DNA of 64,000 nt from Escherichia coli (GTDB lineage Bacteria; Pseudomonadota; Gammaproteobacteria; Enterobacterales; Enterobacteriaceae), in NCBI RefSeq assembly GCF_009931435.1, contig NZ_CP043414.1; one strand, 5' to 3'. The position numbers were made by a program. The stretch's first letter is position 1, and each line of letters begins with the position of its first letter. Below are positions 59,501 to 62,500 of the stretch, in pieces.

Positions 59501-62500
59501 ATGTTTATGGCATGATGCGCGGTCGTGCGCTGGCAGGGGCAAGTGGTGACCGGGAAACGCAAATATTTTGTACGAACCTGATGGCGGAACTGGTGTCCAT
59601 CGCAGGTGAATACTGGCTGAGTGATCAAATCCCAGCAGAATTTTATGGCAAAGCAGCGCGACTACAGTTAGTCGAAAACGCTTTGACCGTTCAACCGTTA
59701 AATTGATCCCTTTTTAACAAGGAATTTCTATGGCACGCATTATTGTTGTTACTTCGGGCAAAGGGGGTGTTGGTAAGACAACCTCCAGCGCGGCCATCGC
59801 CACTGGTTTGGCCCAGAAGGGAAAGAAAACTGTCGTGATAGATTTTGATATCGGCCTGCGTAATCTCGACCTGATTATGGGTTGTGAACGCCGGGTCGTT
59901 TACGATTTCGTCAACGTCATTCAGGGCGATGCAACGCTAAATCAGGCGTTAATTAAAGATAAGCGTACTGAAAATCTCTATATTCTTCCGGCATCGCAAA
60001 CACGCGATAAAGATGCCCTTACCCGTGAAGGGGTCGCCAAAGTTCTTGATGATCTGAAAGCGATGGACTTTGAATTTATCGTTTGTGACTCCCCGGCAGG
60101 GATTGAAACCGGTGCGTTAATGGCACTCTATTTTGCAGACGAAGCCATTATTACCACCAACCCGGAAGTCTCCTCAGTACGCGACTCTGACCGTATTTTA
60201 GGCATTCTGGCGTCGAAATCACGCCGCGCAGAAAATGGCGAAGAGCCTATTAAAGAGCATCTGCTGTTAACGCGTTATAACCCAGGCCGCGTGAGCAGAG
60301 GTGACATGTTGAGCATGGAAGATGTGCTGGAGATCCTGCGCATCAAACTCGTCGGCGTGATTCCTGAGGATCAATCAGTATTGCGCGCCTCTAACCAGGG
60401 TGAACCGGTCATTCTCGACATTAACGCCGATGCGGGTAAAGCCTACGCAGATACCGTAGAACGTCTGTTGGGAGAAGAACGTCCTTTCCGCTTCATTGAA
60501 GAAGAGAAGAAAGGCTTCCTCAAACGCTTGTTCGGAGGATAAGTTATGGCATTACTCGATTTCTTTCTCTCGCGGAAGAAAAACACGGCCAACATTGCAA
60601 AAGAACGGCTGCAGATTATTGTTGCTGAACGCCGTCGCAGCGATGCAGAACCGCATTATCTGCCGCAGTTGCGTAAAGATATTCTTGAGGTCATTTGTAA
60701 ATACGTACAAATTGATCCTGAGATGGTAACCGTACAGCTTGAGCAAAAAGATGGCGATATTTCTATTCTTGAGCTGAACGTGACCTTACCGGAAGCAGAA
60801 GAGCTGAAATAAGCCCGCTGTAAAAGCGCATTTATCTTTAAGGCAGAGTCATCTCTGCCTTGAGTTTTTCATTCCTCTCATCCACGTTTAGTAAGCGCGG
60901 CGAGCATTCTTGCTGATGCGACGCATTGCTTCCCCCCCTTTACACCTTAATGCCGTTCCCCCCACACAGAACAAATTGTTTATACCTGGCTGAGTAAATA
61001 ACCTTATTGTTAGTATTGGTATGCTGGGAGATGATAACCCCGCAATTTCATTATTCATTGTTCTCCCATAGGATGAGGTTTCCCGCCGTAACTGGCGGGC
61101 TTTTTTTGCCGCAGAATTTTCCCTTTTAACATCCTGTAAACGGAAACTGCGCCGAAGCGCAGTTTAAGCGTTGATGGTCAGAACGACCAGTTCGCACCAG
61201 CCACCGCGTTCCATGGCGATTCCACACCGGCACCATGGCTATACCCCACCCCGAGATGCCCGCTTAACGAACTGCTGAATGAGGCTTTAATACCTGCCTG
61301 GTATATTCCACGTCTGCCCGACAAATCATTGACAAAATTACCGTCATTATTCACTTTCACCCGGTTATCATCGACAAATTCTTTGCGCACAGCCGCCTTC
61401 AGCCACGGCTCAACTTCCATGCCGTTCCCCAGACGCATGTTGTAACTCAGCGTTGCGCCCAGTTCACGATATATACTGCGGGTATCGACTGATTTCGATT
61501 CCATACCATTGGATAAATGATATTCGGGGTTATCAGCGGTGAACCCCGTTAACGATGCATACGGCGTCAGGTTCCAGTTACCATCGGTAAATCGCATCCC
61601 GGTTTCAATGTGACCGCCCAGCCCGTTGCTGCGATAACTGCCGTTGGCGGCTCCACCGCTGCTCATTTTACCGGCTACGTTACTTTCAAAGCGGTTCAGC
61701 TTCACGATACCGTCCAGATAGAAACCACTTTCATGTTCCCAGCTGACATAGCCCCCCAGAGAATAACTGCCCACACTGCCATGTCCTCCACGATCAAAAC
61801 CGATATGTGAATGGGAATAACCCATAAAAGCGCCCAGCGTAGCAATCCCCTCAGGAATACCATTACGGCTATCGATCCCCACCGTCATTCCGGTCAGCGT
61901 CTGCTCAAACCCGGCACCCGCATCGGTGGTGACATTATTACGGGTGTTATACGTCGTCCCCCAGACATTATTGTTGTGTGGACTCGCTTTCATTATGTTC
62001 AACCGCTCGCGAATACTGTTTAGCTCAGCATCAAAGACCAACGGTAATGTTGCTGCCATATTGAGTACGGCTGCCGTAGAAGGCGTGATGCGTTTCTCCG
62101 GGACGGGTGTCGGCGTTGGATCGGGAGTCGGGTCTGGTTTCGGATCCGGTTTTGGGTCTGGTTTTGGATCCGGTTTCGGATTTGGGTTGGGGGCCGGGTT
62201 GGGTTTGACATCATTGGTCAGGTTCCAGTTGCTGTTGCCGTCGCTTTTCAGGACATACTCATAGGTCCCAAGATCAACGAAACCGCCGGTATTACCCAGC
62301 GTAAACGAAGCATCCCCTCCCCCTGTTTTCACCAGCGTCATCGCGTCGTCAGACTGAGGGCTGACGCCGGTATCCTGAACAAAGATGTTAAAATTGCCAG
62401 TGGCGTTGTTGTTGACGACCAGTTGATCGCCCCGGGAGCCTGCAACGTTGGTATGCAGGTAGAAATTACCGCTGCCGGAAAGTTCACTGGTGGTCAGCGT

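Follow-up and report, generated by a model that had tools for sequence, protein, structure and literature searches.

The tandem repeat on the minus strand at 62099–62206 of the window, by which we mean the whole 64,000-nucleotide stretch of Escherichia coli DNA analysed here, probably encodes an X-Pro spacer that joins the last β-helix passenger domain of an autotransporter to the α-helix in the pore of its 12-stranded barrel. Read codon by codon, these positions give (X-Pro)18, KPNPAPNPNPKPDPKPDPKPDPKPDPTPDPTPTPVP, which corresponds to codons 402–437 of the ORF 61178..63409 and to the low-pLDDT segment of the AlphaFold model. The core of the array, at 62116..62181 on the same strand, was delimited using TRF and consists of four 12-bp KPDP units arranged as two 24-bp units (AAACCGGATCCR AAACCAGACCCR). 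TRF gave a period of 12 with 4.5 copies at 62128–62181 and a period of 24 with 2.7 copies at 62116–62179, the latter having a score of 93 and being the top tandem repeat of the window. This score was reached in 0/100 dinucleotide shuffles of the whole window, where the maximum was 64. The unit GGATCSGGWTTYGG recurs in register every 12 bp at 62118, 62130, 62142, 62154, and 62166, with 0–2 mismatches. The sequence-only reading had described a degenerate tandem repeat encoding a Pro-rich linker at 62095–62215, which is confirmed by the ORF read-out, the TRF results, and the shuffles.

The periodicity of the DNA was evaluated by keeping the peptide fixed and resampling the synonymous codons. For both linkers in the window, that of the gene described above, which is the second autotransporter gene of the window, and that of ycgV, the DNA periodicity is not above expectation (P = 0.13–0.89). 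For the KPDP allele, P is 0.57–0.89 at lags of 6, 12, and 24, and the units are no more homogeneous than the peptide requires. Because the DNA regularity is no higher than the peptide demands, "degenerate" is an accurate label for this repeat. The window allele is of the interrupted KPDP type with mixed synonymous codons; recent slippage in it was considered and dropped, since the resampling showed no excess DNA periodicity. A regulatory cluster was also considered for the three GATC (Dam) sites found within 53 bp of the linker; their presence is attributed to the Asp-Pro codons (GAT CCN) in the coding region.

Along the ORF, a Pertactin domain extending to aa 398 is followed by the linker at aa 402–437, a helix at aa 443–473, and the barrel at aa 482–721. 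The first of these, a Pertactin-type C-terminal passenger domain of the junction/autochaperone type (PF03212, aa 276–398; 62216..62584, minus strand; Pfam E = 8e-45), lies directly N-terminal of the linker, aligns to residues 430–534 at the end of the pertactin crystal structure 1dab, and is modelled as β-helix rungs with high pLDDT. Directly C-terminal of the linker is an α-helical segment predicted to lie in the barrel pore (61991..62083, minus strand; AlphaFold model residues 168–198). The autotransporter β-barrel domain (PF03797; 61247..61966, minus strand; Pfam E = 7e-46), for which 12 strands are predicted by AlphaFold, completes the protein, and the stop codon of the ORF is at 61178–61180. 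In the AlphaFold model, whose mean pLDDT is 85, the linker is the sole long segment with pLDDT below 50 and has no secondary structure (model residues 129–161); this low pLDDT indicates that no fixed fold is predicted, and nothing more. The model shows a Foldseek TM-score of 0.88–0.89, normalised by target length, to the BrkA β domain 3qq2, and it matches the pre-cleavage translocator structures of EspP, BrkA, Hbp, AIDA-I, and NalP, with the pore-helix segment predicted at high pLDDT. The window gene has the type Va/AIDA-I features of a 12-strand PF03797 barrel, a preceding helix, and a β-helical passenger with PF03212, and AIDA repeats (PF16168) occur in three stretches of the window ORF and in nine of an intact relative. 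A 43-bp deletion breaks the reading frame of the window copy. The intact relative starts with MNRTSRYYFRRSVLSLLISALIYAQPGEA, which on reading resembles a putative Sec signal peptide; the 5′ end of the window gene lies beyond the window.

At the minE (K-12 ycgI) locus lies an AIDA-type autotransporter gene resembling YpjA/EhaD, of which the window holds the 3′ 2.8 kb (61178..64000, minus strand). The gene continues past the window end, and the ORF list shows it as two ORFs, 61178..63409 and 63403..63978. Its identity to the intact 1558-aa gene of strain 100248 is 99.4%, and the region 61169–64000 shows 99.0% identity to ypjA of strain 1190 and others. The deletion relative to the intact relatives was located at 63467..63478 (minus strand) from the blastn piece boundaries and a three-way alignment, in which 43 columns are absent solely from the window copy. 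The deletion shifts the frame, which leads to the stop at 63403; the window copy is therefore a pseudogene of the family, and consequently nothing is under selection there now. The gene lies 366 bp from minE, with a flank orthologous to the K-12 ycgI locus, and ssrA is not its neighbor; ypjA proper adjoins ssrA, outside the window. K-12 keeps just the last 344 bp of this gene, annotated as the pseudogene ycgI. Identity as ycgH was also considered and ruled out, as K-12 ycgH fails to align to the window gene and ycgI aligns. By these alignments, the second gene is the K-12 pseudogene ycgI in its full-length form. Its naming in RefSeq is inconsistent, being either "ypjA" or "AIDA repeat-containing protein".

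The other autotransporter gene of the window, ycgV (22131..24998, plus strand; ORF and Pfam), so named in RefSeq genomes, encodes 955 aa in the order of Pertactin domain, Pro-rich linker, and β-barrel, with PF03212 at aa 494–615 and PF03797 at aa 694–935. An analogous linker had been proposed at about 23990–24100 and was found at 23988..24089 (plus strand) as IPEPTPNPEPTPAPAQPPIVNPDPTPAPAPTPNP, where TRF detects an 18-bp repeat. The 18-bp unit occurs in 2.3 copies at 24048–24089 with a score of 56; of 100 shuffles, 2 gave a repeat scoring at least this high at some position in the window. According to Pfam, the Pro-rich linkers seen from the sequence in both autotransporters do occupy the same architectural position, from PF03212 to the barrel. 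The YcgV spacer is of the same kind and at the same junction, and it is independent of the spacer of the second gene.

Linker length differs among strains for both genes. Strains carry either 2 or 3 copies of the 18-bp unit in ycgV. In the YpjA/minE-locus family, the linker region, measured between the NWNLT and EKRITPST anchors, is 23–89 aa long among the 16 alleles read, and about 20 distinct spans occur among 42 minE-locus genomes. The changes come in 6/12-bp steps and are restricted to the repeat. Identical flanks accompany differing (NP)n copy numbers in one group with 53, 65, and 71 aa and in another with 79, 85, and 89 aa, where 0–1 differences are found across 510 bp of flank; some of these copy-number differences are taken as they stand in the assemblies. 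The long pure alleles are (CCAAAT/CCGAAC)n, and the long NP alleles of other strains show a DNA homogeneity of z = 4.4–6.4 at lag 12, which is found in none of the window, K-12, and O157 alleles. The regularity of the long (CCAAAT/CCGAAC)n arrays beyond the need of the peptide is the mark left by replication slippage or by unequal exchange between units. The length variation that had been proposed is seen in the (NP)n type, which varies among otherwise identical copies and is absent from the window. It is not seen for the KPDP-type window allele, which has one length in 19/19 sampled copies with at least 96.9% identity.

In all alleles that were read as protein, the reading frame is maintained across the linker. 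The units of 6, 12, 18, or 24 bp lie inside the coding sequence, and since the changes occur only in 6-bp multiples, the frame is kept; the locus does not have the character of a phase-variable contingency locus. Strict X-Pro alternation is present in every allele read and also in the independent linkers of other genera. At this junction, other genera carry Pro-rich inserts of 16–39 aa, and YejO-type homologues have the Pertactin and barrel domains joined directly with no linker, giving an overall range of 0 to about 40 aa between genera. The linkers of other genera were taken from a word-indexed protein search that covered mostly proteins of ≤800 aa and partials, which provides a qualitative picture and not a census.

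One of the closest known systems is YpjA/EhaD of K-12 and O157:H7, with the same architecture and linker type. Over the 521-bp linker region, the window is ~95% identical to K-12 and O157 ypjA, and the linker region is 39 aa in the window, 41 aa in K-12 YpjA, and 43 aa in O157. In contrast to ypjA, the window gene adjoins minE at the K-12 ycgI position instead of ssrA, the window copy is frameshifted, and the 5′ ~1 kb of its closest intact relative diverges from ypjA. Weak compositional matches to models of TonB and procyclin (EP repeat) fall exactly on the linker. The (EP)n(KP)n region of TonB and the hinge spacers of the OmpA type alternate X-Pro, with X charged or polar, as the linker does; however, they have no homology to it and span the periplasm, whereas the linker is predicted to lie outside the outer membrane. 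X-Pro tracts such as that of TonB are extended and fairly rigid.

Among autotransporters, TibA, a self-associating AIDA-I-type protein of ETEC, has a Pro-rich segment of ~50 residues between the passenger junction region and the membrane-embedded C-terminal domain (PMC3835316), which is the same position as that of the window linker. By description, its repeat sequences differ from those of the window linker, and strain-to-strain copy-number variation is not described in the text of PMC3835316 considered here. Pertactin of Bordetella contains the variable Pro-rich repeats R1 (GGXXP) and R2 (PQP), for which a role as an extended polyproline-II stalk has been suggested (PMC8931430), and their copy number depends on the allele, as here. 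The PF03212 domain of the window protein matches pertactin residues 430–534 of a 539-residue chain, so that the start of the window linker coincides with the end of the solved pertactin structure. The features shared with the pertactin R2/TibA type are the position between the last passenger domain and the translocator and the strain-variable copy number. The pertactin passenger differs in being cleaved and a vaccine antigen; its units are PQP and GGXXP instead of XP dipeptides, and its variation is of a few units, against a span of about 4 to about 37 for (NP)n.

In the proposed arrangement, the Pertactin/junction-type domain of an AIDA-I-type passenger would be connected through the X-Pro spacer to the helix inside its own outer-membrane barrel. 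The X-Pro tract would form an extended and fairly stiff polyproline-II-like rod of ~3 Å per residue, for which the sole indication in the window protein is the low-confidence coil in the AlphaFold model. The 36-residue tract of the window would correspond to a rod of about 11 nm, which may keep the adhesive β-helix off the barrel and out through the lipopolysaccharide layer. Changes in length would then alter the reach of the adhesin and not its on/off expression. We infer this spacer function for the linker; homologues with no linker exist, which indicates that it is dispensable for secretion. A bolder extension, which we consider doubtful, is that (NP)n of the minE-locus adhesin is a tuning locus, where fast in-frame changes would set the projection from ~6 to 27 nm so as to clear the O-antigen or capsule, and where conversion with ypjA would swap a hypervariable for a stable spacer in one step.

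The sequence-only reading also regarded the linkers as hotspots of recombination between paralogous adhesins, and a part of this claim is borne out. Strain 100248, the closest genome, has both the minE-locus copy and a ypjA of its own, and the two show ~6 differences in 3.6 kb, with none in 2,750 bp; in the 1 kb at the 5′ end and beyond the stop codon they diverge abruptly. The pattern is that of a gene-conversion tract of ~3.6 kb, which starts in the middle of the passenger, ends at the stop codon, and has the linker in its interior and not at its end. Locus and sequence are also discordant against strain JNE21-009. The 210-bp/300-bp flanks of 16 alleles were compared for a breakpoint within the linker; O169:H41 and MEI003 look discordant, with 1–2 differences upstream versus 10 downstream, but these are too few counts, at variable sites that are not adjacent to the linker, to place a breakpoint there. 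The exchange partner of the minE-locus gene is ypjA and not ycgV, and in the event seen in strain 100248 the linker is not the crossover site. It is highly improbable that the Pro-linker repeats are recombination substrates between ycgV and the second autotransporter of the window, even though the two linkers correspond in position and consist of C/G-rich, CCN-based repeats and the best blastn match of the two genes falls within them (40 bp, 77.5%, E = 0.024). RecA-dependent exchange requires about 25 bp or more of near-perfect identity, whereas these genes have no 12-mer in common and no blastn match (word size 7) passing E = 0.01, and in blastp the C-terminal 416 aa of their proteins are 27.6% identical. 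In place of the dot-plot that had been suggested, these comparisons by blastn, shared k-mers, and blastp revealed no usable DNA similarity. The sole difference among the ycgV linker alleles read is in their own 18-bp unit, exchange with ypjA accounts for the alleles of the second gene, and no chimeric ycgV/ypjA-family allele with a junction inside the linker occurs among the alleles read.

The linker could also be a tolerated neutral insertion, that is, a low-complexity segment tolerant of indels whose length drifts by slippage with no constraint. Its absence from YejO-type homologues with the same flanking domains, the range of 23 to 89 aa in one species with differences between close strains, and the pseudogene state of the window copy are consistent with this explanation. 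However, the X-Pro alternation is strictly kept in every allele read and in the independent linkers of other genera, every length change in the translated alleles retains the frame, and the module recurs at the equivalent junction in YcgV, TibA, and pertactin. Cote and Mourez reportedly found in 2011 that the proline-rich region of TibA affects adhesion, which also counts against neutrality, and we regard the neutral explanation as rather unlikely. Still less probable is a region of antigenic variation under immune selection, like polymorphic regions 1 and 2 of Bordetella pertactin, which is suggested by the similar place directly C-terminal of PF03212 and the similar polymorphism of Pro-rich repeats. 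What varies here is mostly how many times one identical NP unit is repeated, and this alters the length, not the epitope, and in the pertactin study no antibodies engaging R1 or R2 were found (PMC8931430). On the plus strand, the ORF 61926..62264 leaves an open frame of 112 aa spanning the repeat, which would give a Gly-rich peptide of GSGF repeats. The minus frame runs through the repeat, gives strong Pfam matches before and after it without a change of frame, is the annotated CDS in every RefSeq genome examined, and yields a confident autotransporter model; the plus-strand ORF was rejected as an antisense shadow of the CCN-rich frame, and its coding capacity is hardly conceivable.

Taken by itself, the X-Pro spacer is a routine case of a coding tandem repeat; pertactin and TibA are earlier examples of autotransporters with variable proline-rich repeats. 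In terms of annotation, the gene adjacent to minE is the ancestral full-length form of K-12 ycgI, not ycgH, and gene conversion leaves the locus, not the sequence, as the sole safe distinction of the minE-locus gene from ypjA. If the length of the spacer sets the reach of the adhesin, the repeat would provide a simple heritable tuning of surface exposure in which the binding domain is unchanged, and this would also be relevant to surface-display constructs based on YpjA or YcgV.

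The window is E. coli chromosomal DNA whose genes extend from ychF, ycgV and dhaR to minCDE. The sequence-only reading had placed a degenerate Pro-rich repeat at 62095-62215, and the codon read-out confirms that it is an in-frame coding repeat. It lies on the minus strand within the ORF 61178..63409 of the YpjA/EhaD-like autotransporter gene at the minE locus (the second gene), where an X-Pro linker, KPNPAPNPNPKPDPKPDPKPDPKPDPTPDPTPTPVP, occupies 62099-62206 (codons 402-437 of that ORF) as 18 X-Pro dipeptides in an unbroken row. The proposed repeat unit recurs in register at 12-bp steps. 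TRF reports a 12-bp period with 4.5 copies at 62128-62181 and a 24-bp period with 2.7 copies at 62116-62179, and the score of the latter, 93, is the highest in the window, compared with a maximum of 64 in 100 dinucleotide shuffles. The analogous linker of YcgV (plus strand, 22131..24998) was also found, as IPEPTPNPEPTPAPAQPPIVNPDPTPAPAPTPNP at 23988-24089, which includes an 18-bp repeat of 2.3 copies. The plus-strand ORF over the second-gene repeat (GSGFGSGF...) was dismissed as an antisense shadow. Three GATC (Dam) sites occur in the linker with a spacing of 24-25 bp (62118-62170), because Asp-Pro codons (GAT CCN) generate them.

In both proteins, a beta-helical passenger leads into a Pertactin-type C-terminal passenger domain (PF03212), which the Pro-rich linker connects to a PF03797 barrel; the passenger of the second protein carries AIDA repeats (PF16168). 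The repeat falls at the passenger-translocator junction: in the second protein, the linker (aa 402-437) follows a Pertactin domain whose last residue is aa 398 and precedes a barrel that begins at aa 482. In an AlphaFold model of its C-terminal 468 aa (mean pLDDT 85, pTM 0.79), the linker follows the beta-helix rungs as coil with pLDDT <50 (model residues 129-161) and is succeeded by a helix (residues 168-198) and a 12-strand barrel. The modelled barrel matches the translocators of BrkA, EspP, Hbp, AIDA-I and NalP, and the N-terminal part of the model matches pertactin, whose crystal structure stops exactly where the linker of the second protein starts.

The second gene is not ycgH, since K-12 ycgH gives no alignment to it. 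The K-12 sequence that aligns with window 58900-61522 extends from minC as far as the start of ycgI, a 344-bp pseudogene, which makes the second gene the full-length form of ycgI. The K-12 pseudogene (NC_000913.3 1223564-1223907; 7065-7408 of the K-12 locus segment L014) corresponds to the last 344 bp of the gene, window 61178-61522, and K-12 lacks the remainder, including the linker. The minE-locus copy including the linker is present in 424 of 5,426 complete genomes, and intact copies are labelled inconsistently in RefSeq, as 'AIDA repeat-containing protein' or 'ypjA'. Relative to intact relatives, 43 bp are missing from the window copy at ~63467-63478, and its ORF breaks at 63403-63409. This deletion shifts the frame; thus, the window copy is a pseudogene.

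The predicted length variation between strains was borne out. In other genomes, a 521-bp query spanning the linker gave match spans of 473, 521, 527, 533 and 659 bp, and with a minE-anchored query about 20 distinct spans were seen among 42 genomes. In 16 alleles read in translation, the segment between NWNLT and EKRITPST varies from 23 to 89 aa, and all differences fall in the X-Pro tract. The window, K-12 and O157 have an interrupted KPDP type (39, 41 or 43 aa). The other type, (NP)n, is composed of CCAAAT and CCGAAC hexamers; NP alleles measure 53, 65 and 71 aa in one set of strains and 79, 85 and 89 aa in another, although the flanks within each set are identical (0-1 differences per 510 bp). 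The 18-bp unit of ycgV (EPDPTP) occurs in two or three copies, and the longer form fits an identity band holding about one third of the genomes with ycgV. Every translated length change preserves the reading frame, which rules out phase variation by the linker repeat and therefore indicates length tuning or drift. The longest (NP)n linkers (79-89 aa; L006, L020 and L021 among the locus segments, and database matches H197, H200 and H208-H210) were all found in ETEC isolates from pigs, and their flanks are nearly identical; the isolates are probably one clone, so that no host inference can be drawn.

DNA regularity was assessed by resampling, in which the peptide was fixed, synonymous codons were redrawn using each gene's own usage, and self-similarity was calculated at lags of 6 to 24 bp. 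Both window linkers were within expectation (P 0.13-0.89), so that the peptide repeat alone accounts for the regularity of their DNA repeats. The long NP alleles exceed the peptide requirement (z 4.4-6.4), as slippage or unequal exchange between units would produce; no such excess was found in KPDP alleles by the same test. The window linker length is unchanged in 19 of 19 sampled copies at least 96.9% identical. Thus, pure alleles are unstable in copy number and interrupted alleles are stable.

The suggested recombination between paralogous adhesins holds with a different partner. Exchange between ycgV and the second gene was rejected, since the two share no 12-mer, their top nucleotide match is 40 bp at 77.5%, and their protein identity is 27.6%. 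Over its 3' 2.8 kb, the second gene shares 99% identity with ypjA, which other strains carry at the ssrA locus, and the homology begins 9 bp past the stop codon. The complete genome closest to the window, strain 100248 (99.4%), carries both the minE-locus copy and ypjA (L001 4380-9056 and L026 24641-29314). From mid-passenger to the stop codon, a stretch of 3.6 kb, the two have about 6 differences, none of them within 2,750 bp, whereas the 5' 1 kb is 20-45% diverged and the flanks are diverged too. The 3.6-kb stretch is an intragenomic gene-conversion tract, and conversion appears to have homogenised all but the N-terminal third of the passenger. The unconverted state is seen in strain JNE21-009, where ypjA, at the ssrA locus, is of the KPDP type and the minE-locus copy is of the NP type. 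The window linker length is common to the 18 best-matching minE-locus copies, and all eight other minE-locus alleles read are of the NP type. Gene conversion between paralogues thus carries the linker, which is cargo rather than the proposed crossover point because it sits within the converted tract; two alleles hint at discordance across it, a signal statistically too weak to use. In strain F765 (L008), an IS1203-family element adjoins a truncated ypjA ending within the KPDP repeat, at the equivalent of window ~62136, and the remainder of this gene is absent from the genome.

The window contains other repeats. Features recur at ~536 bp spacing in ~7977-8896, with two minus-strand rdlD antitoxin RNA matches (8085-8150 and 8621-8686); these are tandem LDR repeats (ldr/rdl type I toxin-antitoxin). 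The tandem repeat ranked second in the window (12 bp x 11, 43857-44001, TRF score 82) lies inside a plus-strand gene for a 470-aa leucine-rich-repeat protein (43548-44960); just 801 of 5,426 complete genomes match at least 80% of this gene.

Variable Pro-rich repeats in autotransporters are already well known. In TibA, a proline-rich domain is described as separating the junction region from the membrane domain (PMC3835316), and pertactin alleles differ in the copy number of two Pro-rich repeat regions, of which R2, unresolved in the crystal, was suggested to form a polyproline-II stalk (PMC8931430). The present polymorphism was not found described in the literature on YpjA, YcgV and EhaD. Weak matches of the second-gene linker to TonB and procyclin models are compositional. 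The linker repeat is real, its earlier interpretation is partly right, and the feature is ordinary.

Among homologues the linker is optional: YejO-type proteins join the Pertactin domain straight to the helix, and other Escherichia, Citrobacter, Salmonella, Klebsiella, Leminorella and Erwinia proteins have Pro-rich inserts of 16-39 aa. That the linker is a neutral, tolerated insertion is a serious alternative to a role as a spacer. X-Pro tracts are extended and fairly stiff, and this general property suggests that the linker may be a spacer setting the distance between adhesin and membrane. At ~3 Å per residue, such a spacer would reach about 11 nm for the 36-residue tract of the window, with a range of about 6 to 27 nm over the alleles.
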